A DNA stretch of 62,160 bases from Candidatus Buchananbacteria bacterium. Lineage in GTDB: Bacteria; Patescibacteriota; Patescibacteriia; 2-01-FULL-39-33. The position numbers and the translations under genes were made by a program. Positions 3,122-55,599 of the stretch are shown here, in pieces (within the stretch, counting starts at the first letter, position 1; every line of letters starts with the position of its first letter). The stretch lies in NCBI GenBank assembly GCA_030650095.1, contig JAUSEE010000062.1:1-62160 (forward strand), read 5' to 3'. The notes under the pieces are model-generated. The model did no database searches. It had not been told where the DNA came from and worked only from the letters and a program-made list of their open reading frames with translations.

Positions 3122-3243
3122 TCAAATGGCATTTATCAACAGAAAAACCGCCCATGTTCTTGATATAATTATAGTTTTAAAGTATAATTGATTGTAAAAG
3201 TTCCTTGAAAAGACTTTATTAATTAATAAAAAGATAAAAAGAA

Positions 3244-3633
3244 ATGAAAATTTCTGCCTTACGCTTGCTTTACAGAAAGCAACAGGCGTGGGGACTGACA
3301 GCAAGTATTGACTTGTCTGGATGCGACCATGAACTCATTCAATCGCCGAAAGCGATAAAACATTTCGTAACAGAAATGATTACTTCGATTAACATGAAAA
3401 CCCATGGCCCAATGCACTTGGAAAGATTTGCCGAGGGACATTTGGAAGGTTATTCAGTAATGCAATTTCTGGAGACGTCGTCTCTAACAATTCACTTTGA
3501 TCATATGATCAAAGACCGGGCTTTTATTGATATTTTTAGCTGTAAGTTTTTCGACCCGATCAAAGCCGAGAAATTTTCCAAGGAGTATTTCAAAGCTAAA
3601 AAAGCCAGAACCAAAACACTCATCCGTTATTAA
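3244..3633 (+). CDS. S-adenosylmethionine decarboxylase-like (SpeH/class 1 pyruvoyl enzyme family) protein
   Basis: Small size (129 aa). LETSSLTIHFD resembles the E-S self-cleavage site followed by the IHT motif of class 1 AdoMetDC. Assigned by motif resemblance only. Confidence 0.55.
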   Translation: MKISALRLLYRKQQAWGLTASIDLSGCDHELIQSPKAIKHFVTEMITSINMKTHGPMHLERFAEGHLEGYSVMQFLETSSLTIHFDHMIKDRAFIDIFSCKFFDPIKAEKFSKEYFKAKKARTKTLIRY

Positions 3634-4543: not shown

Positions 4544-6496
4544 CTACACTTCAATAATAACCGGCAAAATCATAGGCCGCTTTTCGGTTTTTTGGAATAA
4601 GAATTTGCCTATTTCATTCCTAAGTTTTTCCCTGATGATTTGTTCGTCGGGAGATGTTTTGGAACTATGATCTTTTAATATTTTTTTAGCCTTTTGCCTG
4701 GTCATCTCGATCAGTTTTTTGTTTTCTTTCATATAAACAAAGCCTCGAGAAATCAAATCCGGATTATGGATTAATTCGCCCGTCTTCCGGCTAATGGTGG
4801 CTATTATAACCAACATGCCGTCTTCGGCCATCATTTGCCTATCGCGCAAAATAACGTTATGGCTATCGGAAATGCCCAAGCCGTCCACAAAAACATAATC
4901 AGTGACGGCTTTTTTGGTGGATATATAGCCGCCTTTTTTACTGAACTCTATAATGGTGCCGTTATTAGGCACGAATATTTTATCTTTTTTAAAGCCACTA
5001 GCCAAAGCCAACTTCTCGGCTTCTTTAAGTATATAATGGTTAGCATAAACCGGGATATAATAATCCGGTTTAACAGTGTTTAAAATATAAATAATATCAT
5101 CCCTATTGCCATGTCCGGAAATATGGATATCCATCAGATTGCCGTGGATAACATTATCGCACTGGCGATATAAATTATCTTTCAGCCTTTGGATTGTCCT
5201 TTCATTACCCGGAATAATAGAAGAAGACAGGACTACGGTGTCGTTCTTTCTTAATTTAATGCTCCTGTGGCTGCCATCGATGATACGTGATAAGACGGCA
5301 TTGCTTTCGCCTTGAGCGCCTGTACACAGCACTACCACTTTGTTATCAGGATAATCAGCTAGCTGTTCGGTTTTAATAATTGTGCCTTTGCCTGCCTTGA
5401 TATAGCCAAGTTTTTGGGCAATTTCCACATTCATCTTCATGCTATAGCCGTCTAAAGCCACTTTCTTGCCTAATTCCTGAACCATGGAAATAATCCAGCC
5501 GATTCTTTCAATTTGAGAAGAAAAGGTGCCAATAATCAAACGGCCGGGCGCTTCGGCAATTATTTTTCTTAAATTCTTTTTCATTTCTTCGCTATTAGTG
5601 CTGGGTTTGAAATTAATAGCTCCCAAACTTTCTAGCATCAATATTTTGGGACTGGGCAAACTAGCCAAATGCTTGTAATCCACCAGTGGCTGGTTGTTGT
5701 TATTTCTTTCCATCGTCCAATCACCGGGATGGATAACAGTTCCTGGCGGCGTTCTAAGTATAACGCCCACGGCATCCATGATAGAATGCTCAATTTGGAA
5801 AAAGCCCACCTGAAAAGCTCCCAATTTCAAGCGATCGCTGATTTTATTTATGACAATAGTTTTTAATTTTTTGGAGCTGTCTTTTTTATAATCTTCCAAA
5901 CGGTGCTTGATCATAGCCAAAGTCATATTCATGCCTATAACCGTAGGATAACCCAGCTTTTCCAAAAGTATGGGAGCCGCTCCGATATGATCTAGGTGTC
6001 CATGGGAAAATATAACCGCTCTAATGTTCTTTTCGCGTCCTTTTAGATAATCAGAATTAGGGATTATATAATCTATGCCCGGCATGTCTTCTTCGGGAAA
6101 TTGAATGCCCATATCCAAAATCACGATATCTCCACGATATTCAAATACAGTCATATTACGGCCAACCTCTTCACAACCGCCGATAGGTATTATTTTTAAA
6201 ACATCTTCGCCGCCTCTGGCTATTTGTGGCCTGAGCTGCGGCGTTTTACTTACTGGAGCCGGCCTGTACCTATTGTCTTTGCCGGTATTTGAATTAATAT
6301 CACCCAGTAGCTTATCTTCATAAGCGGCAACCGGTGATTTAGGAACATTTTTAGTTATTTGATGTTGGCTGGAAATATCTTGTGAATAGTTCCCAGGTTT
6401 TTTAGAAACTGTTTTCTTATACGGGTTTCTATGTCTGCGTCTTATATTCTTGCTGTTAGCTCCTATATTTTGACGACTTTTTTCTTCATTACTCAT
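4544..6496 (-). CDS. rnj: Ribonuclease J with a ~95-aa basic N-terminal extension
   Basis: Metallo-beta-lactamase motif HGHLDHIG, beta-CASP and C-terminal domains collinear with RNase J. The canonical start region LKIIPIGG lies about 95 aa in. Confidence 0.9.
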   Translation of the reverse strand: MSNEEKSRQNIGANSKNIRRRHRNPYKKTVSKKPGNYSQDISSQHQITKNVPKSPVAAYEDKLLGDINSNTGKDNRYRPAPVSKTPQLRPQIARGGEDVLKIIPIGGCEEVGRNMTVFEYRGDIVILDMGIQFPEEDMPGIDYIIPNSDYLKGREKNIRAVIFSHGHLDHIGAAPILLEKLGYPTVIGMNMTLAMIKHRLEDYKKDSSKKLKTIVINKISDRLKLGAFQVGFFQIEHSIMDAVGVILRTPPGTVIHPGDWTMERNNNNQPLVDYKHLASLPSPKILMLESLGAINFKPSTNSEEMKKNLRKIIAEAPGRLIIGTFSSQIERIGWIISMVQELGKKVALDGYSMKMNVEIAQKLGYIKAGKGTIIKTEQLADYPDNKVVVLCTGAQGESNAVLSRIIDGSHRSIKLRKNDTVVLSSSIIPGNERTIQRLKDNLYRQCDNVIHGNLMDIHISGHGNRDDIIYILNTVKPDYYIPVYANHYILKEAEKLALASGFKKDKIFVPNNGTIIEFSKKGGYISTKKAVTDYVFVDGLGISDSHNVILRDRQMMAEDGMLVIIATISRKTGELIHNPDLISRGFVYMKENKKLIEMTRQKAKKILKDHSSKTSPDEQIIREKLRNEIGKFLFQKTEKRPMILPVIIEV

Positions 6497-8888: not shown

Positions 8889-9037
8889 AATTAAATGATT
8901 TAATTTAAATAATTAAAGAGCGTTTCCCTCCAAAAACGCTAGATATGTTATCTCTTATTACTATTATGATATCACACTTTAGCTCTAAAGTCAATTACTG
9001 GGATATTTAAAGAGATGTGTTATAATTAATTTATCTT

Positions 9038-9772
9038 ATGTTAATACCCATAAATAACCAAGAAAACTGGCTAAATCGCTCAGCTTTATGGCTCAAAAAA
9101 AAGTGGACCGTAGCTCTTATTGTAATTATTATCTTGTTGATAGTTTTAATCGCTCTAATTTTCCTCTCCGGCGACCAGTCCAAAAATAACCAGCCGACTT
9201 TAATTAATATAACCAATAATCTCCCGGCTAGCGACCCCAAAAGGCAGATGGCGGAAAAGAGAGACCGGCCTCATTTTGGCAATGAAAATGCCAAACTGGT
9301 TATAGTGGAATTTTCTGATTTCCAATGCCCGGTCTGCCAAGCCCAATTTCCGACAATCAGGGAAATTGTAAATAAATATAAAGATGATATTTTTTTTATC
9401 TACAGGCAATACCCTATTATTAATGACAACTCCCCTGTGGTTTCCATGGCTTCTTTGTGCGCCTACGAACAAGATAAATTCTGGCCCATGCATGACAGAT
9501 TATTTCTAAACCCCAGTGATAATTTTTCCGGTGACGACCTAAAAAATATCGCTAGGCAGTCCGGTCTCGACCTGGAGAAATTCAACAGTTGTTTGACATC
9601 GGAGAAATATAAAAATATGGTTACAGAGGATACCCGTGACGGATTTGACCTGGGAGTTCCGGGCACGCCGACTTTTTTCATAAATGGCGATAGGCTAAGC
9701 GGCAATATTTCCAAAGAAAATTGGGATATTATAATCAGCCAATCATTAAAATTGTTAAATAACCAGAAATAG
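9038..9772 (+). CDS. DsbA-family thiol:disulfide oxidoreductase, membrane anchored
   Basis: N-terminal TM helix, thioredoxin-fold CPVC active site (FSDFQCPVCQ), DsbA-like C-terminal part. Confidence 0.85.
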   Translation: MLIPINNQENWLNRSALWLKKKWTVALIVIIILLIVLIALIFLSGDQSKNNQPTLINITNNLPASDPKRQMAEKRDRPHFGNENAKLVIVEFSDFQCPVCQAQFPTIREIVNKYKDDIFFIYRQYPIINDNSPVVSMASLCAYEQDKFWPMHDRLFLNPSDNFSGDDLKNIARQSGLDLEKFNSCLTSEKYKNMVTEDTRDGFDLGVPGTPTFFINGDRLSGNISKENWDIIISQSLKLLNNQK

Positions 9773-22366: not shown

Positions 22367-22443
22367 AAAAGTTAATTAAGAAAAGAAGAAAGCAATAAAA
22401 TAACAAATTAAGACAATGGAAAACCAAGATGCTTTCTTATTTT

Positions 22444-22584
22444 TTATAATGTTGCTGCCCGAATACCCCTGGCTTTTAAGCCAGGGGATGAAGGGCAGTG
22501 TGAGAAGAAATATGTCGGCGGAGCCAACACCCTCCATTTGAAACCGCCCAGATACCCCGCTCTTTAGAGCGGGGTCGGGTTCAT
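22444..22584 (-). repeat. Structured repeat family, copy B (forward orientation on the minus strand)
   Basis: Full-length copy between the ftsK stop and the rodZ-like start. Carries substitutions that keep base pairing (see findings). Confidence 0.85.
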
Positions 22585-25343: not shown

Positions 25344-28300
25344 TTAAATTACTGGTTCGGTAACAGGAGCCGGCTCTGGCGCAGGAGCTGGTGCCGGATC
25401 TGGTTCCGGTGTTGGTATTGGCTCTGGTGCTGGAGCCGGATCTGGTTCAGGCGCCGGCTCTGGTTCTGGAGCCGGTGTCGGTTCCGGTTCAGGCGTTGGA
25501 TTAGGCTCTGGTTCTGACGCTGGATTAGAATTTGGTTCCGGATTTGAAACAACCGGGTTGTAAGTACAGGAGCCGTCGTTTTCGGTGGCCGAGAGGTTAT
25601 AATTGTTAGCGCTTGGATCGGTACAACCCATAACGGCGCTGTCTCCGGCAACTTGTGGGGTAGGAGTATTTTCAATGGTTCCTTGGACGGCTAAAGATAG
25701 CCAATCAAAGGAGATGTCTTTATTAATGGTCGGGCTCATATTCAATCTGAAACCTTTGGCAGTTTTATCAGAAATCCAATAATTCTTGCTTTCCAAATTA
25801 TCAAGAGGCGTAACCACGATTCTAGGAGTGCCTAAATATTCAGTGGCAAAAATAATTTCTGTGCTGGTGGCAAAAGCGGGAATGGTAATGCCGCCAGCCT
25901 GATCCTTATTAACATAAATTTTGCCTTTGACATCTATATCGTTTTGGAAAGACACTTTAACCGCAAAATTAGCTTCGCCTAAAACAGTGATCGTGCCATA
26001 GAAAGTGGCGGCTTCTCTAACTACAAGTTCATCTTGCGTTTGATAATTGTTGTTCACAGCCAACAGGCCTACTTGGGCATCCAATTCCTTGACGGCGGCC
26101 ATAGTGATGCCGATCCAATCCATTGAATTTATTCCTTGATCTTCGCCAATATCGAAATATTGATTGATGTAATCCACGAAGGGAGAAATGTGCCGTCTCT
26201 GATCGTCGGCGTATCTATTTGCTCCATCGACTACTTCATTCTTATACTGCCACTCATAAAGTGGCATAGCCCGCAATTTCTCAAGATAGCCGACGGGTTG
26301 AGTCCAATTATCCTTATACCAACTGTATGAAGGAGCATCTGTCCAAACTCCAGCCGTAGTCAAGCGAGCGCTAGAATCGTCCCAAATTGGCCAAGTGGTA
26401 CCGGTAGTGCCAATGCTTATGCCGTAACCTGTTTGCGAGGCAAGTCCGAATCCAACCACACCCGATGTGTTTAATGTTGTAACTCCGCTAACAGCTCCAC
26501 TAGTCACATCCCAACTGCTGCTATTTATATTCACTATATCTCCTCCATCACCGATAGTCAGTGTGGAATTTGTCGTCCATGTGCCATTAACAGTGTTGCT
26601 TGATAGTGTTCCGCCACTGACAGTAATAGTATCATCAACTTCAGCATTAGAAACAACAGAGCTTCCTGCAACTAAATTTGACGCTGTCAAAGTATCAGAA
26701 ACTTGAGCATCAGCTATTTCTCCCGTTGAAAAAAAGCTAGTGGCACTATCGCCCGTTAAAGCGGCACCTGCTTCGGCATCACCAGCGGCGTAATTATTTG
26801 TTGTGTCGGTGCCTAATGCCACGGAGTTGAGGGCAATAGTAGCGACAACCGAACCAGGACCGGAAGCAGTAACATCGCCAGTCAAGGCAGTAATATAATT
26901 TCCCGTGGCTTGTTTGGCATTTAATTGTGTTTGAATGGCCGAAGTGACACCATCGACATAATTCAACTCCGTGCCGGTCGGCAAGACTGAAACTCCGCCG
27001 AGAGTAAAGGGGGTGGCCATAGTAAATGTTCCATCAACGCTTAAAGTTCCGCCATAATGTCCGTTGCCTTTGGTGAATAATCCAGAAGTGGAAGACGCCC
27101 AACCCCCAACTGTTAAATTACCAGAAGTGGTGGCGTTCCTGCCTACATACAAATCACCAGCGCCAATGGTAGAGCCAAAGGTACTAATGACATCTGTAGT
27201 ACCAATATTGAGCCAGTTGGAAGTGGTGGCAGTGTTGACCACGAGATTAGTGATAGTGGAAGAAGCCGTGTTAACCAAGATGCCTCTGGTGGAAGTAGGA
27301 GATAGAGCCGTCGCATCAAAGGCGTACCAAGCGCCGGATTGACCGCCAGTAACCGTCAGAGCCCCGCCTGATATAGTCAAACCTAAACCAGTCAGATCAG
27401 TAAAGTATTCGCTGTTAACACCCAGGCCGGTGGTGTAGAAATTAGTGGTAGTGGCACTACCATCAATAGTCAAGTTGCCTCCGTAGTGACCAGAACCTTG
27501 AGTAAAGAGTCCCAGAGTGGTGGACGCCCAACCTAGAACAGTTAAGTTGCCTGAAGTGGTGGCGTTTCGTCCCACATACAAATCTCCTGCTCCAATGGTA
27601 GAGCCAAAGGTACTAATGACATCAGTCGTGCCGATATTAAGCCAACCCGAGGAAGTGGCGTTGCCATCAACACTTAAACTGCCTCCATAGTGACCAGAAC
27701 TTTGGGTAAAGAGTCCTAAAGTTGTGGAGGCGTAGCCGCCAAAAATACCATTATTTTGTATATTTAAATTTCCCGCGGAAAATAATGCGTCAGTCGGAGC
27801 CGTGCCAATAGTCAAATACCCCGTTGAAGTGGCGTTGCCGGTATTTGTTAGGCCATTAACATCAAGCATTCCACTCATATTTAAATCATCCGAAAGAGTG
27901 AAATTGCCCTGGCTTACGCCCAACGCGCCGGCATTATTCCAACCGAAACTTTCTCCACCGGCATCGAAATAAATTTTATCATCGTCGGAATTTGAAGTTT
28001 GGCCTATAAATAAATCTTCACCCACATACATGAAATTAGTGGTTGTGGCATTTCTGCCCACATACAAATCTCCTGCTCCAATATTAGCGCCAAAAGTGCT
28101 AATAACATCTGTCGTGCCGATGTTGAGCCAGTTGGAAGTGGTAGCGGTATTGACGACGAGATTAGTAATGGTGGAAGAAGCCGTGTTGACTAAGATGCCT
28201 CTGGTGGAAGTAGGAGATAGAGCCGTAGCGTCAAAGGCATACCAAGCGCCGGAAGCGCCAATATTGGCTACAGTCAAAGCGCCTCCGCTGATAGCTAAAC

Positions 28301-30791
28301 CGCTGCCAGTTAGATCGGTAAAGTATTCACTGTTAACGCCCAGGCCGGTAGTGTAGAAATTAGTGGTCGTGGCGCTGCCATCAATAGTCAAGTTGCCGCC
28401 GTAGTGGCCATTGCCTTGAGTGAAGAGTCCCAGAGTAGAAGAAGCCCAACCTAGAACAGTTAAGTTGCCTGAAGTGGTGGCATTCCTGCCTACATACAAA
28501 TCCCCTGCTCCAATAGTAGAGCCAAGCAGTCCAAAGACATCAGTGGTGCCAATATTGAGCCAGTTAGAAGTGGTAGCATTGCCATCAATACTTAAATTGC
28601 CCCCATAGTGGCCACTACCTTGGGTAAAGAGTCCCAGAGTGGTGGAAGCGAAACCCAGACCATATAAATGTTCCGTTGTAGTCGCGCTACCATCAATTCT
28701 TAGACCGCCTTGGAATAAAGCAGATGTGGTAGCAGTAGAAACAACATGCAGAGTATAAGCCGGGCTATCCGTTCCGATGCCAACTCTGCCGCCGCTTGTC
28801 GGTTGCAAAAGAATTTTTCCAACTTCAACTGATCCAGCTCCACCCTCTAACACAACATTGCCCCCGGTGCCCGTAACCAGAGAGCCCTGTCCGCCGGCTC
28901 CACCGGTAATCGTTATAGCTCCGCCAGTACCGCCAAATCCGCCACCGCCAGTGCCATCGCCACCTAAGCCACCAGTGAGATTGATCGCACCGCCAATATT
29001 GCCAGTAAGCGCAGTTCCTCCTTTTCCTCCTGTTACAGTTAAGACTGATAAAGCGTCTGCTCCAGCACCGGCATTTGAACCCACAACATGCAACTTGGCC
29101 GCCGGAGTCGTTGTTCCAACTCCAACACTGTCAGTATCAGCCTGAACCACTAGAGTACTGGTGTCTACGGTTAGATTGCCACTAGTTGTAGCATTTCGTC
29201 CCACATACAAATCGCCAGCGCCAATAGTAGAGCCAAAGGTGGCAATGACATCAGTGGTACCAATATTGAGCCAGTTAGAAGTGGTAGCATTGCCATCAAT
29301 ACTTAAATTGCCCCCGTAGTGGCCACTACCTTGGGTAAAGAGTCCCAGAGTGGTGGAAGCATAACCTCCAAAAATACCATTATTTTGTACGTTCAAGTTT
29401 CCTGCGGAAAATAATGCGTCAGTCGGAGCTGTGCCAATAGTCAAATACCCCGTTGAAGTGGTGTTACCGTTTAAAACAGTATCGCCTTGGACATTTAAAG
29501 TGGTGGTGCTGTTGGTGATAGCTCCGCCTAAGGCTATCATGCCTAAGATATACATGTTTTGAGTTGTGGTGGCATTGCCCTGGACATAAAGCTTGGTAGT
29601 AGAGGCTGTGCCATCGTTGGTAATGGTGAAGTATCTGGTGCCGGCAAAGTAAGCGGAGTTGTCAATGACTTCCAAGTAGTTACCAGTGCCATTTTGGGAG
29701 ATAGTGAGGGCGGTTGAAGAAGTGACGCTTAAGTTCTTGTTGGACTCAATCCAGACGCTGCCTTTCATATGCGTCCAATCAGAATTGGCCATATCGCCTA
29801 GATAAGAATTGTTTTCTACAGTTAAAGTAGAGATAGTGGAAACACCTACGCTTTGGGTGCCAGAGAGAGTGAGGTTGTTGGCAAAGACATCCCCTTCGGC
29901 ATCAACTAAGAATTTAACACTGTCAGCTACAGCTAATCCTAAAAGATTAGAATCCCCCACAGCTGAAGCTGGGTTGATGTAGATAGAAGCGTTGTCGGCG
30001 TTAGCATTAGTTGTGCCCGGAGACCAAGAGCCGAAGGAATGAGGCAGGGTGGGTGAATTGGTGGAAATGGTAATGCCGTTGATGTAGAGGTTGCCGTCTA
30101 TTTCCGCGTCATTAGCTACGTAGAGTTCGCCGGAGGAGAAATTCAAATGATTAACCGTGCCTGCTCCTACCATCAAATAGCTGGTAGTAGTAGCTTGGGT
30201 GATGCTTAATCCTTTGCTGCTATCCAAAGCTAGAATCTGTCCGGCGGTGGCGGTGGTGGTGGCATGCAAGCCGTCAACCGTATCGGAGTTGAAAGCGTAA
30301 GGCGAAGAAGTGATTCTTTTTCGAGGCGTGAAAGTTTCTTCAAAACCACCATCGCTATTGGCATCAAATTTAACAGAGAGGAAAAGAGAATTAGAATTGA
30401 AATCGACAGTAGAAAGCGAAGTGGAAGTGCCCAGGTTAACCGAGAAGATGCCCCGAGTTATGCTCACAGCGCCGGGAGTGGTAGTGGCGGTCCAAGTTTC
30501 TTCCCAAAGCAGGGTGCCTGAGGTGACATCATCATAGAGTTGGAATTGAAAGCCGTAACTGCCGGTGGTGACCGAGAGACCGGAAGAGTTGGCTATTTTG
30601 CCTTGATAAGTTATTTGTTGGTTGATGCCTAGGGCGGCTTGGGTAGTAGAAACTGCAGACAAATCAAAGACTATCCAAGCCGCTGCTAAAATCGGCACGA
30701 CAAGCAAAATTAAAACCAGCACAAGATTAGTAGAGAAAAATCTATTTTTCAATTTCATGAGGTGGCTGAATTGTTTTAAAAATTTAATCAT
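25344..30791 (-). CDS. Giant repetitive surface protein, 1815 aa (N-terminal TM/signal anchor, Gly/Thr/Asn-rich repeats, tail-fibre chaperone-like domain, Cys-bracketed module, Pro-rich tail)
   Basis: Single uninterrupted ORF. Repeated blocks such as GYASTTLGLFTQGSGHYGGNLSIDGNATTSNWLNIGTTDV..GAGDLYVGRNATTSGNLTV. C-terminal PEPEPTPAPEPEP tail. Confidence 0.85.
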   Translation of the reverse strand: MIKFLKQFSHLMKLKNRFFSTNLVLVLILLVVPILAAAWIVFDLSAVSTTQAALGINQQITYQGKIANSSGLSVTTGSYGFQFQLYDDVTSGTLLWEETWTATTTPGAVSITRGIFSVNLGTSTSLSTVDFNSNSLFLSVKFDANSDGGFEETFTPRKRITSSPYAFNSDTVDGLHATTTATAGQILALDSSKGLSITQATTTSYLMVGAGTVNHLNFSSGELYVANDAEIDGNLYINGITISTNSPTLPHSFGSWSPGTTNANADNASIYINPASAVGDSNLLGLAVADSVKFLVDAEGDVFANNLTLSGTQSVGVSTISTLTVENNSYLGDMANSDWTHMKGSVWIESNKNLSVTSSTALTISQNGTGNYLEVIDNSAYFAGTRYFTITNDGTASTTKLYVQGNATTTQNMYILGMIALGGAITNSTTTLNVQGDTVLNGNTTSTGYLTIGTAPTDALFSAGNLNVQNNGIFGGYASTTLGLFTQGSGHYGGNLSIDGNATTSNWLNIGTTDVIATFGSTIGAGDLYVGRNATTSGNLTVDTSTLVVQADTDSVGVGTTTPAAKLHVVGSNAGAGADALSVLTVTGGKGGTALTGNIGGAINLTGGLGGDGTGGGGFGGTGGAITITGGAGGQGSLVTGTGGNVVLEGGAGSVEVGKILLQPTSGGRVGIGTDSPAYTLHVVSTATTSALFQGGLRIDGSATTTEHLYGLGFASTTLGLFTQGSGHYGGNLSIDGNATTSNWLNIGTTDVFGLLGSTIGAGDLYVGRNATTSGNLTVLGWASSTLGLFTQGNGHYGGNLTIDGSATTTNFYTTGLGVNSEYFTDLTGSGLAISGGALTVANIGASGAWYAFDATALSPTSTRGILVNTASSTITNLVVNTATTSNWLNIGTTDVISTFGANIGAGDLYVGRNATTTNFMYVGEDLFIGQTSNSDDDKIYFDAGGESFGWNNAGALGVSQGNFTLSDDLNMSGMLDVNGLTNTGNATSTGYLTIGTAPTDALFSAGNLNIQNNGIFGGYASTTLGLFTQSSGHYGGSLSVDGNATSSGWLNIGTTDVISTFGSTIGAGDLYVGRNATTSGNLTVLGWASTTLGLFTQGSGHYGGNLTIDGSATTTNFYTTGLGVNSEYFTDLTGLGLTISGGALTVTGGQSGAWYAFDATALSPTSTRGILVNTASSTITNLVVNTATTSNWLNIGTTDVISTFGSTIGAGDLYVGRNATTSGNLTVGGWASSTSGLFTKGNGHYGGTLSVDGTFTMATPFTLGGVSVLPTGTELNYVDGVTSAIQTQLNAKQATGNYITALTGDVTASGPGSVVATIALNSVALGTDTTNNYAAGDAEAGAALTGDSATSFFSTGEIADAQVSDTLTASNLVAGSSVVSNAEVDDTITVSGGTLSSNTVNGTWTTNSTLTIGDGGDIVNINSSSWDVTSGAVSGVTTLNTSGVVGFGLASQTGYGISIGTTGTTWPIWDDSSARLTTAGVWTDAPSYSWYKDNWTQPVGYLEKLRAMPLYEWQYKNEVVDGANRYADDQRRHISPFVDYINQYFDIGEDQGINSMDWIGITMAAVKELDAQVGLLAVNNNYQTQDELVVREAATFYGTITVLGEANFAVKVSFQNDIDVKGKIYVNKDQAGGITIPAFATSTEIIFATEYLGTPRIVVTPLDNLESKNYWISDKTAKGFRLNMSPTINKDISFDWLSLAVQGTIENTPTPQVAGDSAVMGCTDPSANNYNLSATENDGSCTYNPVVSNPEPNSNPASEPEPNPTPEPEPTPAPEPEPAPEPDPAPAPEPIPTPEPDPAPAPAPEPAPVTEPVI

Positions 30792-31653: not shown

Positions 31654-34434
31654 TTAACCAAACTTACTCTCTGATTCTTGTTTGTTAATAACAGTTGCTT
31701 CAGTCTGTTCCACAACTGGAGACTCTGGCTTATCCCCTGTTTGGTTTATGGTATTAGTAGTAGAAATCATATCATCTTCAGAAGATGGGGGCGGAGTTTC
31801 AGTAGAATCATCTGGCGGTGATTGATTGCTAACACTTTTTTCGGCTTCTTGTTTTAATTTGTCAGCTATTTCAGCCAGAGGTGATTTTTCTGCGCTGATT
31901 GTTTCCTCCGAAGTTGGATTAATAACCTCCTCTTTCTCTTCTATTTTTATTTCATCAATATTTTCCACTGGCGCATTACTATCTCCTTTAGAAATATTAT
32001 TTTCCAGCTGATTACTTTCTGGCGCGCTAGGTATCGGCTCCAGCTTAATATCTTGGCCAATGACTTCTTCTGATTTTTTATGAGTCAAATCAATATTCTC
32101 GGTCTTAGCTTCGCTATAGCCATCTTTGGCAGCTGAAATGTAATAGATATTATTGCCGGCCAAAAATCCATAGCGACCATGCCTATCGGTAACTTGAGCT
32201 TCAAGCATCTTATTGTATTCGGGCGAATAAATTTTAGCCACTGTGCCGGAAATAGGCTTGCCTGTTTTAGCATCTAGCACAATACCCCACCTATTAACTT
32301 TCTCTCTGGCCACCAACCTTCTAAACAAGAGATACAGTATTATATGAATAACGGCGAAAGAAGCCATAAGTACACTGGGGAAAATAGCAAAAGAAACCAA
32401 GGCGAAAATCGGGCCGGCCAAGCTGATATTTTTTTGGATAATATACCGGAAATTTTTTCTCCTAACTTCTTGATCTGATATTTTGGCATCCGGCGGATCA
32501 ACTGGGATGTTGGCGGTAATAATTCCCTTTTGATCCTTGGTGATTGATATTAGCTCACCATGGTAGATATTGGTGAACTGCCTGTCCTCTGATGAATCTT
32601 TTAAAATATCAGAGGGGAACACCATGCTTTGCTTAACCACTTCCAAAATATAATCGCCTTCCGAAACTAAGAAATTATATCGCCCCTCTCTATCGGTAAC
32701 TCTGGATTTTAATAATCTGCCTGTTGTTTTGTCGTATAATCTGATAACGGCCAAATCAATCGGTTTTTTGGTAATGGAATTGTAAACCACACCCCAGCCT
32801 TTTTTCTTGCGCCTAAAAAACCAAGCCAGCGGTTCGGTAAACAAATATTGCATGTAATTGATAAAGCCCCACCAAGGAATAGCTATAAAAGCGCTGATAG
32901 TGGCTAGGCTGGCTACAAAAGGGGCGGTATATTGGTTTACTTTTTCCACCACTGGATTATCTAATATATCCTTGATAATTTTTAAAATCTGTTCCAATAA
33001 GGTTAGGCCGATATCCTGATTGATGATGTTATTTCTAACATTAAATAATCTGCCATCATATATCTTTTGGCCATTGTCAAAGACAACTAATTTATACCTG
33101 CCGTTTTCCACCATAAAACCGTAAGTCCCATCCGGATTTATCTTGCTTAGCTGTATTATTAATTTATTATTTTCATTATACAGTAAAACCGAGATGCCAA
33201 AAATCCTGGTTTTATCTTCTGGCAATTTGGAAAAGACATGGCCCAGTGGATGAACGGTGATTATTATATTTTTTTCTTGGACTGAATTATCGGCATAGAC
33301 AACCGATAATTTAACATAATTCTTGCCCAGGGTATTAAATCTGTTTAATTGAAGCAAGTATTGATTTGAACTGGTGTCATAGGTAAAAGGCCATGTCTCT
33401 CCGCCGCTAACGGCCGTAATTTGTTTAACCTCTTTGGGAAAATTATTAGGTACTAAAATCAATAATTCATGGCTGATTAAAAGATCAATATTGTCATTTA
33501 GCAAAAACAACTGCAGGCCGTTATTATTGGTAAAAAAATAATAGTTCGGTCCTACCAATCCGCCTGTCGGAACAGTAGGCACAGAATAGACACAGGTGCC
33601 GTTGTTTACGGAAGCGCTGGAATCATAATTTAAAGCTCTGCTGTCGGTACAACCAAAAACCGGATAAGTGCAACTGCCATTGTCTATGGTCGCTTGAGGA
33701 TTGTAGTTTAAAGCCGAGCCATCGGTACAGCCGGGAATATCATTGGGGTCATAAGAACAGGTGCCATTATCCACATTGGCCTGAGGATTATAATTGACAG
33801 CCGTCGGATCGGTACAGCCCGAGACAATGCAAGAGCCATTATCGCTGGTGGCTTGGGGGTTATAATTACCAGCCAAGGGATTAGTACAGCCGGAAATTAG
33901 ACAACTGCCATCATCAATAGTGGCCTGAGGATTATAATTATCAGCCAAGGGATTAGTGCAGCCGGCTAGCTGATAAATACAACTACCATCATCAATAGTG
34001 GCCTGGGAATCATAATTTATAGCTGTCGGATCCATACAACCAGAGTTTATATACTCACAAGAACCGTCATCCTGGTTGGCTGATGGGTTATAATTGACAG
34101 CAATTTGATCGGTGCAGCCTAAAACAACCGGCTGGCAAGAACCATCATCAATAGTGGCGCTAGGATTATAATTGACAGCCGTGGGATCGGTACAGCCATA
34201 GACATCATAGATGCAAGAACCGTCATCAATAGTAGCGCTAGAATTATAATTTAGAGCCAAAGGATCGGTACAACCGTAAACAGGAACTGGAGGTGGAGGT
34301 GGCGGTGGGGGCGGAGGAGGATTACCACCAGAAATTCTAGCATTGATATTTACATCGGCCGCCGACACAAAAGAAACGGCTGAAACCGCTAGAAAAAATA
34401 TTAAGCCAATTATAAGTAATTTCTTAGAGAGCAT
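31654..34434 (-). CDS. Large surface/membrane protein, 926 aa (signal peptide, poly-Pro, 9 tandem Cys-bracketed modules, TM segments, two carboxypeptidase-regulatory-like domains, acidic S/T-rich tail)
   Basis: Nine copies of GCTDPxAxNYNxxAxxDDGSCxY. Two segments match the CarboxypepD_reg pattern (VIRLYDKTTGRLLKSRVTDREGRYNF; AKIYSPEYNKMLEAQVTDRHGRYGF). Confidence 0.8.
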   Translation of the reverse strand: MLSKKLLIIGLIFFLAVSAVSFVSAADVNINARISGGNPPPPPPPPPPPVPVYGCTDPLALNYNSSATIDDGSCIYDVYGCTDPTAVNYNPSATIDDGSCQPVVLGCTDQIAVNYNPSANQDDGSCEYINSGCMDPTAINYDSQATIDDGSCIYQLAGCTNPLADNYNPQATIDDGSCLISGCTNPLAGNYNPQATSDNGSCIVSGCTDPTAVNYNPQANVDNGTCSYDPNDIPGCTDGSALNYNPQATIDNGSCTYPVFGCTDSRALNYDSSASVNNGTCVYSVPTVPTGGLVGPNYYFFTNNNGLQLFLLNDNIDLLISHELLILVPNNFPKEVKQITAVSGGETWPFTYDTSSNQYLLQLNRFNTLGKNYVKLSVVYADNSVQEKNIIITVHPLGHVFSKLPEDKTRIFGISVLLYNENNKLIIQLSKINPDGTYGFMVENGRYKLVVFDNGQKIYDGRLFNVRNNIINQDIGLTLLEQILKIIKDILDNPVVEKVNQYTAPFVASLATISAFIAIPWWGFINYMQYLFTEPLAWFFRRKKKGWGVVYNSITKKPIDLAVIRLYDKTTGRLLKSRVTDREGRYNFLVSEGDYILEVVKQSMVFPSDILKDSSEDRQFTNIYHGELISITKDQKGIITANIPVDPPDAKISDQEVRRKNFRYIIQKNISLAGPIFALVSFAIFPSVLMASFAVIHIILYLLFRRLVAREKVNRWGIVLDAKTGKPISGTVAKIYSPEYNKMLEAQVTDRHGRYGFLAGNNIYYISAAKDGYSEAKTENIDLTHKKSEEVIGQDIKLEPIPSAPESNQLENNISKGDSNAPVENIDEIKIEEKEEVINPTSEETISAEKSPLAEIADKLKQEAEKSVSNQSPPDDSTETPPPSSEDDMISTTNTINQTGDKPESPVVEQTEATVINKQESESKFG

Positions 34435-46516: not shown

Positions 46517-46568
46517 ATGAACCCGACCCCGCTCTAAAGAGCGGGGTATTCGGGCAGCAACATTATAA
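46517..46568 (+). repeat. Structured repeat family, copy C (short form lacking the central ~90 nt)
   Basis: atgaacccgaccccgctctaaagagcggggta joined directly to ttcgggcagcaacattataa. Confidence 0.8.
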
Positions 46569-46574
46569 AAATTA

Positions 46575-49873: not shown

Positions 49874-50065
49874 ATGAACCAAAAACCTAAGTTAATAGAC
49901 CCGGAGAAATTAAAAAATGTCTGTAAACTAGGGCTAGCCCAAGAAGAGTGCCACCTTTTACGGCGACTGGTCCACAACGGCTTGATAGTTTGCGCTCATA
50001 AAACCTACGTGGATATCGGTATAATAAAACCCAATTGCCAGAAAATGAACCCGACCCCGCTCTAA
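49874..50065 (+). CDS. Small Cys-containing protein (63 aa) whose last 7 codons and stop lie inside repeat copy D
   Basis: SD aaggag 6 nt upstream of the ATG at 49874. The ORF ends ...KPNCQK-MNPTPL-stop within the repeat. Confidence 0.45.
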   Translation: MNQKPKLIDPEKLKNVCKLGLAQEECHLLRRLVHNGLIVCAHKTYVDIGIIKPNCQKMNPTPL

Positions 50066-50185
50066 AGAACGGGGTATCTGGGCGGTTTCAAATGGAAGGT
50101 GTCGGCTCCGCCGACGTATTTTTTCTCACACTGCCCTTCATCCCCTGGCTTAAAAGCCAGGGGATGAAGGGCAGCAACATTATAA
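50045..50185 (+). repeat. Structured repeat family, copy D (reference copy, with a perfect 19-bp terminal hairpin)
   Basis: Full-length copy followed directly by an intrinsic terminator. Confidence 0.85.
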
Positions 50186-50191
50186 ACAGCC

Positions 50192-50220
50192 AGCTCGAAA
50201 ATAACCTTTCGAGCTTTTTT
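50192..50220 (+). terminator. Intrinsic terminator immediately after repeat copy D
   Basis: Hairpin agctcgaaa-ataacc-tttcgagct followed by T6. Confidence 0.65.
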
Positions 50221-50439
50221 ATTTATTAAAAACCTATAAAAAACATACCCCCAGCTGGAGGCTGGGGTATCTGTTTGACCCACTAGGCGGGCTAGTAGCT
50301 CACAATTATAGTAATAGAGTGGAATGAAAAAATAGGATATATTACTCCTCCCCTTTCCAAGGGGAGGCCGGGAAGGGGTTTTTGAGGCATCAGTATAAAC
50401 CTCCCCTTGACCCCTCCTTAAAAAGGAGGGGAAATAAAA

Positions 50440-50466
50440 AATAAAAAAAGCGGATTAACAATCCGC
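50440..50466 (-). terminator. Intrinsic terminator of the 280-aa orphan gene
   Basis: Minus strand: gcggatt-gtta-atccgc followed by a long U-run, directly after the stop codon. Confidence 0.65.
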
Positions 50467-51446: not shown

Positions 51447-54400
51447 TTATATTTTTTCCAGTTGAATCTTAATTTCTTCATTATTAATTTTAGATTGAGC
51501 GCCCTCGTTATCTGATTTGATGAATTCCGTAGTGAGAGTGGCTTGCTTTAATTCCTCTAACCATCTTTTATCAGTTAAAATATTTATAACCATCTGACTG
51601 TCACTCTGCCACAAGACTTTTATTTTATCCCCGATAGTCAAACCATTATCTTTCCTAAGGCTGTTAATTGTCCTAACAAGTTCACGCAGCAAGCCTTCGG
51701 CTTTCAACTCCTCTGTCAGTTCTGTGTCCAGTTCCACTTTTATTTCGGCTCCTTTTTTAAATTCCACTTCTTTAACATTCACTTCATCGGCTATTAATTC
51801 TGCTAATTCTTTTGGCAAATCATAACCGGTAACTTTTAATTGGGCTAGCGGTTGTCTTATTTTTATGGCTTTTTCCGCCCGAGCCGCCAGACCCATTTCC
51901 ACAATTTTTCTGACACTGTCCATCTGCTCGATTATTTTGTGATCAGCTTTTTCGGCCTTAGGCCATTTATCCAAATGAACTGATTCTAATTTTCCTTTAG
52001 CCGCCAGATAAACTGATTCCGAGAGAAAGGGCATAAACGGCGCCATTATTTTAGACATTTCTATTAAGACAAAGTTAAAAGTGGAAAGAGCTTGTTTTTT
52101 GTCTTTCTCATCCCCCGATTTAAAGCGATCACGGCTGCGCCTTAGCCACCAAGTTGAGAACTCATCCACAAAATACTGTATCGGCCGAACTGCCTTAGAC
52201 AACTGGTAGCTGTCCAACTCTTTAGTGACGTCATGAGCCAATTTATTAAACTTAGCTATCAGCCATTTGTCCAATATATTCTTGGAATTATCGGCTGGCA
52301 CGATAGAATCGTCGGCATAGAGCTGATAAAATTTTACGATGTTACTAGTTAACATCACCACTTTCTGGAAAGCTTCTTTCACCCCGGTTTCTGAAAAATT
52401 AAAATTTTCCGCCGACATAACCGGAGAAGAAAGCAGATAAAACCGCAGGGCGTCAGCGCCGTATTTCTCAATAATCAAATCAGGCTCCGGATAATTCTTT
52501 AAGCGCTTGCTCATTTTAGTGCCATCTTCGGCTAAAACAATGCCATTGGCAACAACATTTAAAAAAGCCGGCTTATCAAACAAGGCTGTAGCCAAAATCA
52601 TCAAAGTGTAAAACCAACCGCGCGTTTGATCCACGCCTTCGGCGATAAAATCGGCCGGAAAAGTTTTCTGGAACTTGTCTTTATTTTCAAAAGGATAATG
52701 CAATTGGGCGTAGGGCATGGAACCGGATTCAAACCAGCAATCCAAAACCTCTGGTATCCTTTTCATTGGGCTGGAGCATTTGGGACAAGGCAATAAAATA
52801 GAATCCACCACGTCCTTATGGATATCAACTGTCTTTTCGGCCAACTTTACAGTATCGGTATTCTCCAGCATCGGCGAATCAAAAATATTGGCTGGCTTTA
52901 AACCGGCTAATTTTCCGGCCAGTATCCTAATATTATCGCCATGTGAAACCAAGAGGACATTCTTACCAGCATGATTTTTATTTATCTCTTTCCAAAGGCT
53001 AAACATCCTAGCCTCTACTTGAGCCGAACTTTCTCCCTGGGGAAATTGAAAAGTAGATTTTCTTTGCCATTCTTTTAATAATTCTGCGGCTGTTTCATCA
53101 CTATCAGACTGGCCTTGCAACTCGCCAGGATCAACTTCATTTAATCTATCATCAAAGGCCAATTTTATTTTAAGCTCATCGGCCATGATTTCGGCCGTTT
53201 GCTTGGACCTCAACACTTCCGAAGAAATGATTAAATAAATATTCAAATCTTTTAATTTTTTAGCTGCTTGTTTGGCTTGTTTTACGCCTTTTTCGGTCAA
53301 AGGATATTTATCCTTATCATTGCTAAAAACATTGAGTATGTTTTTTTCTGATTCGCCATGACGCATGGCATAGACATTGATCTCATCGATTTTAGATTTA
53401 TCCAATTCCTCGATTGAACCGATAACTTTTATCTCGCCGCAATCGCTACAGCGCCAAACTGGCAGGGGCGTGCCCCAAAACCTGGAACGAGAAATCGCCC
53501 AATCACGCGCATCTTCCAGCCAATGGCCAAAGCGGCCGAATTTTAAATGCTCCGGCACCCAATTAACCTGGCTGTTGTTTTTAATCAGATCTTTTTTAAT
53601 AGCGGTCACTTTCACAAACCAAGAAGAGGTGGCGTAATTTAAAAGAGGTGTATCGCAACGCCAGCAATGAGGATAACTATGCTCGTATTTTTCCTTGGAA
53701 AACAATAATTCCTTGTTTGATAAATATTTGATTATTTCCACATCGGTTTTCTGGGTATCTTCTTTGGGTTTAACTTCCAAGCCGGCAAAACCGTCGCCGA
53801 TATCGGATTTAATCCGGCCGGTTTCATCAACATGCTGGATCAAGGGAAGATTTTTTTCGCTCCCCAAGGCCATATCCTCTTCGCCGAAAGCCGGAGCAAT
53901 ATGGACTACGCCCACGCCATCGGTCGTGGAAACAAAATCAGCCGAGACAATCGTATAAAGATTTTCCTTGTACTCTATGTCCTTGTCTAAAAAATAATCA
54001 AACAGGGGTTTGTATTTTTTGCCTACTAATTCTTGGCCCTTGAATTCAGAAATAATTTTATACTCTTGGTCTTTAAAAACTTTCTCAACTAAATCCTTGG
54101 CCAATATAAATATTTCTTCCTGATTTTTGTGATTTTGTGTTTTGGTATCTTTGTAAATAACTTTAACATAATCAATATCCTCCCCCACAGCCAAGGCCAC
54201 ATTGCCAATAAGCGTCCAAGGCGTGGTAGTCCAAGCCAAAACATAAGTGCCCGGCTCGTCTTGCAACTCAAATTTGGCTGTCACGGCCAGATCTTTGACA
54301 TCTCTGTAGCCTTGAGTGACTTCGAAATTAGACAAGGTGGTTTCGCATCTGGGGCAAATGTGCATGGATTTATAGCCTTCATAAATCAAGCCTTTATCAA

Positions 54401-54893
54401 AAAGCTGTTTGAAGACCCACCAAATGCTTTCCATATACCAGGGCTCCATAGTTTTGTAATCCGCCTCCATGTCCACCCAACGACCCAGGCGGGGAATGGT
54501 TTTTTTCCAAATATCGGCATACCTCAAAACACTTAGGCGACAACTGTTATTAAACTTGCTGATGCCCATGGCTTCGATATCCTTGCGGCTTTTTAAATCA
54601 AGTTCCTGCTCAATCAGATTTTCTATCGGCAAGCCGTGGCAATCCCAGCCCCAACGGCGTTCTACATATTTGCCTTTCATGGTTTGATACCGCGGTACAA
54701 CATCCTTAATGAAACTTGAGGGAAAATGGCCATAGTGAGGCGTGCCAGTGGCAAAAGGCGGACCATCATAGAAACTGAAAACCTCGCCATTTCTGGTGGC
54801 GGCTAAGCTTTTTTCGAATATTTTATTATCCTCCCATGATTTTTGGATTTCCTTTTCTTTCTCGATCAAGGGGTTATTTTTCGCATCAGTCAT
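51447..54893 (-). CDS. ileS: Isoleucyl-tRNA synthetase with an in-frame histidine-phosphatase-like domain insertion
   Basis: HIGH-type PHYGH and KMSKR motifs, CP1 editing domain. Start placed at the Met of MTDAKNN (54893); the 10 upstream codons lie inside repeat copy E. The insert contains RHGES ... SHG motifs. Confidence 0.93.
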   Translation of the reverse strand: MTDAKNNPLIEKEKEIQKSWEDNKIFEKSLAATRNGEVFSFYDGPPFATGTPHYGHFPSSFIKDVVPRYQTMKGKYVERRWGWDCHGLPIENLIEQELDLKSRKDIEAMGISKFNNSCRLSVLRYADIWKKTIPRLGRWVDMEADYKTMEPWYMESIWWVFKQLFDKGLIYEGYKSMHICPRCETTLSNFEVTQGYRDVKDLAVTAKFELQDEPGTYVLAWTTTPWTLIGNVALAVGEDIDYVKVIYKDTKTQNHKNQEEIFILAKDLVEKVFKDQEYKIISEFKGQELVGKKYKPLFDYFLDKDIEYKENLYTIVSADFVSTTDGVGVVHIAPAFGEEDMALGSEKNLPLIQHVDETGRIKSDIGDGFAGLEVKPKEDTQKTDVEIIKYLSNKELLFSKEKYEHSYPHCWRCDTPLLNYATSSWFVKVTAIKKDLIKNNSQVNWVPEHLKFGRFGHWLEDARDWAISRSRFWGTPLPVWRCSDCGEIKVIGSIEELDKSKIDEINVYAMRHGESEKNILNVFSNDKDKYPLTEKGVKQAKQAAKKLKDLNIYLIISSEVLRSKQTAEIMADELKIKLAFDDRLNEVDPGELQGQSDSDETAAELLKEWQRKSTFQFPQGESSAQVEARMFSLWKEINKNHAGKNVLLVSHGDNIRILAGKLAGLKPANIFDSPMLENTDTVKLAEKTVDIHKDVVDSILLPCPKCSSPMKRIPEVLDCWFESGSMPYAQLHYPFENKDKFQKTFPADFIAEGVDQTRGWFYTLMILATALFDKPAFLNVVANGIVLAEDGTKMSKRLKNYPEPDLIIEKYGADALRFYLLSSPVMSAENFNFSETGVKEAFQKVVMLTSNIVKFYQLYADDSIVPADNSKNILDKWLIAKFNKLAHDVTKELDSYQLSKAVRPIQYFVDEFSTWWLRRSRDRFKSGDEKDKKQALSTFNFVLIEMSKIMAPFMPFLSESVYLAAKGKLESVHLDKWPKAEKADHKIIEQMDSVRKIVEMGLAARAEKAIKIRQPLAQLKVTGYDLPKELAELIADEVNVKEVEFKKGAEIKVELDTELTEELKAEGLLRELVRTINSLRKDNGLTIGDKIKVLWQSDSQMVINILTDKRWLEELKQATLTTEFIKSDNEGAQSKINNEEIKIQLEKI

Positions 54894-54897
54894 ATTT

Positions 54898-55038
54898 TTA
54901 TAATGTTGCTGCCCGAGTACCACTGGCTTTTAAGCCAGGGGATGAAGGGCAGTGTGAGGAAAAATACGTCGGCGGAGCCGACACCTTCCATTTGAAACCG
55001 CCCAGATACCCCGCTCTTTAGAGCGGGGGCGGGTTCAT
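54898..55038 (-). repeat. Structured repeat family, copy E (forward orientation on the minus strand, 4 nt upstream of the ileS ATG)
   Basis: Full-length copy. Its 3' end ...gcagcaacattataaaaat abuts the ileS start codon. Confidence 0.85.
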
Positions 55039-55221
55039 TATCTATTATATCACAGTTATTATGGCATTTTTTGATTCACCCTGTTAAATAAGATTTAAAT
55101 ATATTTAAATCTTATTTTTAAATTTTAGTTGTTTAAAAATTAAATCTTTTAAACGATGGAATATAAACGAAATGCTTATATTCGTATTATATAAAATTTA
55201 AAAATTATTAAACAGGGCAAA

Positions 55222-55487
55222 TAAAAAACCGACATGCCACCAAGAGCCTTACAAGGCGGTACCATCTCGGGATTATACTTGTTTTAAAAGCTGTAATGGG
55301 CTAACCCAGTCGGTTCTAACGGCAGATTTGCTTTCTTCCGACAGCTGCTTTGATGATAGTCAAAGTTTATCCCGTTAAAATACTCAGTAATTGAATTTTA
55401 ATCATTAAGGCTGAAACAGGATTGCCCCCAAATATAAACAATTAATAATATTATTTAACTTGGGGTCATATGCTTTTTATAAATTGT
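55222..55487 (-). promoter_or_regulatory. T-box leader (Ile) upstream of ileS
   Basis: Minus strand: ccgaga-UGGUACC-gcc-uuguaa-ggc-ucuugg forms a textbook antiterminator with the 7-nt bulge UGGUACC, followed by a U6 run. Candidate specifier AUC-A is in the hairpin loop cuuuga-CUAUCA-ucaaag (55365-55348). Promoter is TTGACT-17-TAAAGT (55522-55494). Confidence 0.65.
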
Positions 55488-55599
55488 ATTGTCACTTTAC
55501 TAGATTACGGTATTTTAGTCAACTGCCATTAAGACGCTATTTTAATTTACTAAGTATTATAAAAAACGGGCTTAACCCGCTTCTTATTTTAAAATTATT

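Follow-up and report, generated by a model that had tools for sequence, protein, structure and literature searches.

The window examined here is the whole of a 62,160-nt stretch of DNA from Candidatus Buchananbacteria (contig JAUSEE010000062.1), and it contains five copies of a short repeat, labelled A to E. Its genes include ileS (51447-54893, minus strand), which carries an inserted His_Phos_1 histidine-phosphatase domain at about residues 507-684, an arrangement also present in a related locus (L142:5442-8864). Two very large ORFs of 1815 and 926 aa (25344-30791 and 31654-34434, minus strand) contain long internal tandem repeats, some with units near 300 nt, some with a period of 78 nt, and some of 12 nt that are rich in Gly/Ser/Ala; they probably encode surface proteins.

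We use "forward strand" for the orientation in which a sequence-only reading had described the repeat (plus, as listed for copy D) and "top strand" for its reverse complement, the predicted active strand. As the conserved target lies 3' on the forward strand, the element is best read in the latter orientation. The features discussed below are as follows.

2599-2836, top strand minus: copy A, net insert of 238 nt; target at 2837-2841
22448-22584, top strand plus: copy B, net insert of 137 nt; target TTTAT at 22443-22447
46517-46564, top strand minus: copy C, net insert of 48 nt; target at 46565-46569
50045-50181, top strand minus: copy D, net insert of 137 nt, with boundaries placed by analogy with empty and filled sites
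50045-50049, minus: end motif of copy D, TTCAT on the top strand; transposon-encoded
50055-50074, minus: right-end hairpin of copy D, CCCCGCTC-TAAA-GA[A]CGGGG, 10 nt from the element end
50101-50115, unstranded: middle hairpin of copy D, GTCGGC-TCC-GCCGAC, followed by a T-run on the plus strand; terminator-like in the forward orientation
50131-50174, minus: left-end hairpin region of copy D, with inner hairpin at 50142-50163 and outer stem CTGCCC/GGGCAG
50182-50186, minus: target motif of copy D, ATAAA on the plus strand and TTTAT on the top strand; outside the element
50336-50448, unstranded: possible sixth element, very divergent and uncertain; boundaries ATGAA... and ATAAA, two CCCC/GGGG hairpins
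54902-55038, top strand plus: copy E, net insert of 137 nt; target TTTAT at 54897-54901

Copies of the repeat in the window

The number, placement and density of the copies (about one per 12 kb) agree with the sequence-only reading. The end motifs AACCCGACCCC and GCAGCAACATTATAAA, at the 5' and 3' ends of the forward strand, each have five matches in the window, against 0.61 and 0.08 expected, respectively, and the long copies are 93-98% identical by alignment and a repeat finder. A covariance model of the family (model R1), run unfiltered over the whole window, recovered exactly copies A-E; the four long copies scored 122-177 bits and the short copy C scored 38.7 bits. Besides these, model R1 gave just palindromic echoes and one weak match at 50341-50448 (19.6 bits, E about 0.0025), the possible sixth element listed above. 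Inspection of ORFs placed every copy in intergenic DNA, and copies A, B and E do lie 77, 78 and 4 nt upstream of start codons, as had been noted. The intrinsic terminator reported after copy D corresponds, at consensus level, to a terminator-like hairpin and T-run at 50192-50215 (plus strand).

Two details of the ends, which had been described as fixed, need correction. Copy A starts with ATAAACCC instead of ATGAACCC, and the terminal ATAAA of each repeat is the target site and not inserted DNA. The ends GAACCCGACCCC... and ...GGGCAGCAACATT are non-complementary, and terminal inverted repeats are thus absent, as was originally observed. The element has no coding capacity of its own, its 137 nt being crossed just by spurious ORFs of at most 45 aa.

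Two copies depart from the long form. Copy A is interrupted by a single-copy nested insert of 101 nt (2631-2731), which splits the guide-like region at its right end, and its end motif is mutated to TTTAT. The nested insert reads CCCGCCTGCC...GGCGGGCAGG and lies at a site other than TTTAT; no second copy of it was found in the window or the collected loci. Copy C is a one-hairpin derivative (53 nt with the target) in which the 5' part of the left end is fused to the right-end hairpin. The long form has two GGGGTAT repeats, and loss of the DNA between them accounts for this arrangement.

The spacer containing copy D is 679 nt long, compared with 120 nt in a relative. It also holds a lone hairpin, CCCCAGC-TGGAG-GCTGGGG, followed by TATCTG as in the element (50247-50275). 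Both this hairpin and the two-hairpin segment at 50336-50448 may have been left behind by related elements. Short-read Logan contigs of this organism from SRR13727527 (L134, L135 and L136) stop in or beside copies B, C, D and E. Assemblies of this genome are fragmented by the repeat family; every Logan contig of the organism which we fetched ends in or beside a copy.

Insertion sites and the sister family

For the window family, an empty site is seen in a relative represented by loci L142/L143. Its RecA is 90% identical to that of the window and the order of genes is kept (response regulator, ferredoxin, ileS, U32 peptidase, RuvA, Mur ligase), and copy E is absent from the syntenic region upstream of ileS. 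The relative reads ...AGATATTAAAAATATGAGTG where the window reads ...AGATA, the 137 nt of the element and ATAAAAATATGACTG, and in a pairwise alignment with the relative the window flanks, less these 137 nt, align straight over the junction. About 100 kb of relatives' loci, partly overlapping, contained no copies. A candidate empty site for copy B was set aside, as the relatives have a rhodanese gene there and the sites are not comparable.

Copy E separates the ileS start codon (54893) from a conserved leader, and in the window the interval between the two also holds an AT-rich stretch of about 150 nt. The leader itself (about 55180-55520 in the window, minus strand; L142:5152-5400) is shared with the relative; a terminator hairpin and a GGTACCGCC motif reminiscent of a T-box lie in it. 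It has no Rfam match even at E values up to 10, and the T-box that this motif had led us to suspect is not supported by Rfam. For the repeat too, the earlier statement that it is not a T-box is sustained, with no Rfam match to T-boxes, riboswitches or leaders.

The 22-nt hairpin at the 5' end of the forward strand matched at least 120 stretches of groundwater metagenome DNA. A few of these are true relatives of the window family (L043, L108/L133 and L110), while the majority come from a sister family that measures 113 nt with its target, or 108 nt as a net insert. The sister family has the identical 22-nt hairpin, opening ATGA and closing TTATAAA, and differs elsewhere; its plan is like that of the window family, with end motif GTCAT and loop GAACA. 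The 99 copies of its 113-nt form collapse to four sequences, which implies a recent burst. Non-redundant complete copies number 69; they were retrieved with a 3'-end pattern requiring ATAAA, and this count is therefore not independent evidence for the target. Hairpin matches without an ATAAA end comprised just copies cut by contig ends, a lone hairpin in L074 and a copy in L022 that is interrupted, and truncated at its left end, by an IS256/Mutator-family transposase gene (PF00872; L022:519-1553, minus strand).

Beyond these loci, the 18-nt 3' end gave 13 single matches in unrelated taxa among GTDB representative genomes, close to chance expectation, which indicates that the host is not represented in that set. 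Neither three patterns searched in viral contigs nor BLAST against plasmids and phages produced a match. Proteins under the names Candidatus Falkowbacteria and Buchananbacteria share 87-88% identity with the window RecA, and a protein that contains an insert of the sister family is named Candidatus Woesebacteria.

Joining the two flanks of each copy and searching the collected loci with the product revealed five independent presence/absence sites in the sister family. Each site has an empty allele of the form flank-ATAAA-flank and a filled one of the form flank-AT, element, ATAAA-flank. The target is thus 5 nt long (TTTAT on the opposite strand), and there is no duplication beyond the ambiguous AT. 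Insertion polymorphism of this precision identifies the element as mobile DNA, a conclusion in which our confidence is very high. The new family of stand-alone or cis-acting RNAs implied by the sequence-only reading is consequently not the best explanation of the repeat, which is present or absent as a precise unit at its 5-nt target.

The insertions of the sister family extend into genes. A net insert of 108 nt equals 36 codons, with one open frame per orientation, and in-frame inserts which add 36 residues occur in both orientations in the following ORFs.

L052:1277-2443
L034:3276-4274
L032:2778-3668
L087:5074-6144
L099:696-1544
L059:819-1898
L046:2126-3094

The frame stays intact, and the Pfam domain resumes after the insert, in four of the proteins: TsaD, BacA/UppP, a class-I glutamine amidotransferase (GATase) and a GT2 glycosyltransferase. 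One UppP/BacA allele contains two inserts, one of them polymorphic. In ATP-grasp and MFS proteins, the insert is also in frame but is placed where the stretch matched by Pfam ends, or outside it. Sister copies also occur within a 16S rRNA gene and group I intron region (L018:1-3530). Where a gene has its stop codon within the target A-TAA-A, insertion yields A-TGA-C... and the position of the stop is unchanged; two upstream genes (in L033 and L110) terminate exactly at the TGA of the element.

These in-frame inserts of 36 residues resemble the Rickettsia palindromic elements (RPEs), which are not known to have a defined target or an enzyme. The window family differs from RPEs in its 137-nt length, which is not a multiple of three, and in being intergenic only, and the former fits the latter. 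In some variants of the sister family (L023, minus strand; L062:about 8930-9090), the otherwise invariant right hairpin is absent and the closing stem is capped by a short loop, CATCCTC-AAGA-GGATG. The right-hairpin module may be gained or lost as a unit.

Structure of the element on its top strand

Read on the top strand, the element follows the target TTTAT and the predicted first cut with AATGTTG, the outer stem CTGCCC, GAATA and the left hairpin (CCCCTGGC-TTTTAA-GCCAGGGG), and continues through ATGAA and the outer stem GGGCAG to the middle hairpin. Its right part comprises CCCAGATA, the right hairpin (CCCCGCTC-TTTA-GAGCGGGG) and TCGGGTTCAT, after which the second cut would fall. The left end is accordingly TTTAT followed by AATGTTGCTGCCCGAATACCCC..., and the right end is ...GGGGTCGGGTTCAT. 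The distance from TTTAT to the left hairpin is 18 nt in the window family and 17 nt in the sister family, and that from the right hairpin to the element end is 10 nt, of which the last bases are TTCAT. Copies A, B, C and E have the consensus right hairpin (GAGCGGGG), which the sister family shares without change; copy D differs by one base. Guide-like segments are present at the expected positions 5' of the hairpin feet (GAATA or GAACA on the left; AGATA, TGATA, TGGTA or GGATA on the right) and show conservation against varying stems, and we infer the register in which these would pair with the target and end motifs.

The repeat is directional, as had been described, and the strong structure ascribed to it was confirmed by comparison of its folding with that of shuffled sequence (z = -9.2 for copy D and -7.2 for copy B). 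Copy D has a perfect 20-bp hairpin at the 3' end of its forward strand, in which the internal loop (GAATA opposite ATGAA on the top strand) has been converted to a perfect palindrome, and the guide-like loop is thereby removed. The same perfected left-end palindrome occurs in another contig (L108/L133), where it arose independently of copy D. This suggests recurrent hairpin-templated correction.

Covariation, a test which the sequence-only reading had called for, was evident among seven distinct members of the window family. Five pairs show double changes, with 98.7% of cells paired; none of 500 shuffles reached the observed pairing and no slid register came near it. Swapped stems include AACCCG/CGGGTT to AACCCA/TGGGTT and CTGCCC/GGGCAG to CTGGCC/GGCCAG, as well as changes in the inner hairpin, and the apex of the left hairpin in the sister family has four compensated forms. 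GAAYA and ATGAA, the two sides of the internal loop, do not change even where the stems do, as would be expected if they were recognition or guide elements. Maintenance of hairpin stems by compensatory change points to a single-strand structure, and this evidence cannot separate single-stranded DNA from RNA. A comparison of wobble pairs between the RNA and DNA strands on the 113-nt sister form met too little variation, with four variants in 99 copies.

At gathering level, Rfam yielded one tRNA only, and no family for the repeats, in keeping with the initial impression that they match no known RNA. Permissive scans returned hairpin-type miRNA noise and weak matches to HgcC (RF00062). The latter are full-length and below threshold, scoring 17.3 bits for copy D and 19.4 bits for copy E against a gathering score of 50, and three sister-family copies reached 30.0-30.5 bits, also below 50. 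In locus L018, HgcC-like matches lie at 2175-2279, 3258-3362 and 5079-5182, the second of these inside a group I intron match (3165-3528). In every copy tested, the match is on the top strand. The resemblance to HgcC of Methanocaldococcus, Pyrococcus and Archaeoglobus consists of the right hairpin CCCCGCnCUUUAGnGCGGGG followed by AGGAnGUCA, and of a GAUGAAUUGAAC-like or GAUGA(A)UUGAAC-like stretch after the left hairpin; the differences are the bacterial hosts and an unrelated middle part. Judged from these sequence likenesses, the relation to HgcC is probably one of distant homology and not of membership. A published link already connects HgcC with PATE-derived RNA and with the tetraloop at the right end of tnpB elements of the IS1341 type (Gomes-Filho et al., PMC4615843). 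The matches described here would extend the link between this orphan Rfam family and transposon ends from archaea to bacteria.

Origin and significance of the repeats

We consider that the repeats are non-autonomous, gene-less derivatives of the IS200/IS605 family, of the kind known as palindrome-associated transposable elements (PATEs), and assign this reading a probability of roughly 0.75. The enzyme and the single-strand route are proposed by analogy with IS608 and the ISGst elements. A Y1 HUH transposase (TnpA), encoded elsewhere, would bind both hairpins in single-stranded DNA and locate the two cut sites via short guide segments. The top strand would then be excised as a circle, the donor resealed, and the circle inserted 3' of another TTTAT without target duplication. 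The position of copies near gene starts can be attributed to the prevalence of the A/T-rich target in intergenic DNA, and to the disruption of reading frames that a 137-nt insert would cause within genes.

The geometry of known systems is close to that observed here. IS608 is cut at its left end 3' of TTAC, at a distance of 19 nt from the left hairpin on its 5' side, and at its right end after TCAA, 10 nt 3' of the right hairpin (PMC3201880), with four-base guides directly 5' of each hairpin foot (PMC3201880; PMC5934647). The repeats share with IS608 and ISDra2 the positions of the cuts, predicted here about 18-19 nt 5' of the left hairpin and 10 nt 3' of the right one, guide-like segments 5' of the hairpin feet, and a target kept in the donor (PMC3201880, PMC5934647). 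They differ in their 5-nt target TTTAT, compared with TTAC or TTGAT, and in their perfect 8-bp stems, where IS608 has a bulged base; no sequence similarity was detected. The Geobacillus elements ISGst2 and ISGst5 use the target motifs TTTAT and TTCAT, with end motifs that differ at 1-2 positions, and gene-less PATEs lie beside the ISGst elements of Geobacillus stearothermophilus (bioRxiv 10.1101/2023.03.14.532601). Like the PATEs of haloarchaea and those related to ISGst1/5 in G. stearothermophilus, the repeats have fused, differing ends with a hairpin each, no ORF, and insertion without duplication at a motif of 4-5 nt, here TTTAT/TTCAT as in ISGst2/ISGst5. They are distinguished from these PATEs by their host, a member of the candidate phyla radiation (Patescibacteria), by an extra conserved helix closing the right end and a middle hairpin, by perfect, unbulged hairpins, by the lack of a visible orientation bias, and by a cognate TnpA not having been found in the searched DNA. 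Classic MITEs, derived from Tc1/IS630, IS5 and other elements, are similarly small, non-coding, high-copy and mobilised in trans. The sequence-only reading was right to separate the repeat from them, as it has neither terminal inverted repeats nor target-site duplication; it would belong instead with the hairpin-ended miniature kind.

A source of transposase was sought at several levels, with the host genome represented by the window and by short Logan contigs that break at the repeats. There is no TnpA or TnpB gene in the window, none was detected in further contigs, and tblastn of 0.9 Mb of loci with TnpA sequences as queries revealed no TnpA. A weak tblastn match in L016 proved to fall in ordinary metabolic genes and was rejected, as was the L022 ORF as a partner enzyme, this being the IS256/Mutator transposase inserted into a copy. 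A protein search with element-encoded peptides returned insert-bearing host proteins only and no transposase, and no full-length element with these ends was seen in the searched DNA.

The orientation of the copies counts against the IS200/IS605 reading. Elements of this family are often biased, with the top strand on the lagging-strand template, a frequent correlate that is not strictly defining. In the window, the top strands of copies A-E are minus, plus, minus, minus and plus, several other multi-copy contigs are mixed as well, and GC skew follows gene direction with no switch that would explain the mixture. Together with the TnpA-free searches, this lends some weight to a miniature element moved by other machinery, be it an IS607-type serine recombinase acting at the shared AT, an IS91-like rolling-circle enzyme or an unknown system. 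The two-base ambiguity of the junctions (AT...AT) also fits a recombinase with a 2-nt crossover. We nonetheless regard such machinery as unlikely: the compensated stems point to single-strand structure, the 5-nt target, end motif and spacings closely match IS200/IS605, and the HgcC-like matches fall on the predicted top strand. Still further from our expectation are repeats of the REP/REPIN type, served by a RAYT (TnpA-REP), a domesticated transposase related to the TnpA of IS200/IS605. The element is indeed a hairpin-rich, high-copy, intergenic repeat, but the GTAG-type head and paired inverted REP doublets are absent, the two ends differ, the target is a fixed 5 nt with clean insertion and empty alleles, and there is neither a RAYT nearby nor a Y1 gene in the searched loci. 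We hold this origin to be very improbable.

The repeats might alternatively be RNA in the first place, small RNAs or 5' leaders made from the forward strand with the hairpins as RNA structure. Their fold is strong and covaries, copy D sits between a -10-like TATAAT and a terminator-like hairpin, copy E is necessarily transcribed within the ileS 5' leader, and archaea express related RNAs of the HgcC and PATE kinds (PMC4615843). A forward-strand RNA is difficult to reconcile with an element that comes and goes as a unit and whose precise insertion polymorphism is that of mobile DNA, or with its mixed orientation to genes, copies C and D facing away from any downstream gene. The nearly identical-ended sister copies lie in coding sequences and in the L018 16S rRNA gene and group I intron region, in both orientations, and no Rfam family exceeds threshold, the sole resemblance being the weak HgcC matches on the opposite strand. 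We judge a primarily RNA element improbable. Given the copies that point away from genes, the sister copies in coding DNA and the gain and loss as a unit, any RNA role would be secondary.

There is a small chance that more than selfish DNA is involved, the elements having been put to use or the family being mobilised by an outside enzyme in a transposase-less host of the candidate phyla radiation. Were this so, top-strand HgcC-like transcripts might act in trans, for instance by serving a partner of the TnpB/IscB type as regulatory RNAs or partial guides; copies might act in cis, copy E being the last 137 nt of the 5' leader of the essential ileS; and the in-frame sister family might supply a 36-residue module to many proteins. 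The sister family, recently active and inserted in frame in the manner of RPEs, deserves a study of its own. For the window family, a candidate RNA family is replaced by a testable model of a mobile element with defined target (TTTAT), cut sites and active strand. If the IS200/IS605 reading holds, hairpin-ended miniature elements of this type can reach such a density, of the order of one copy per 12 kb, in a streamlined genome of the candidate phyla radiation.
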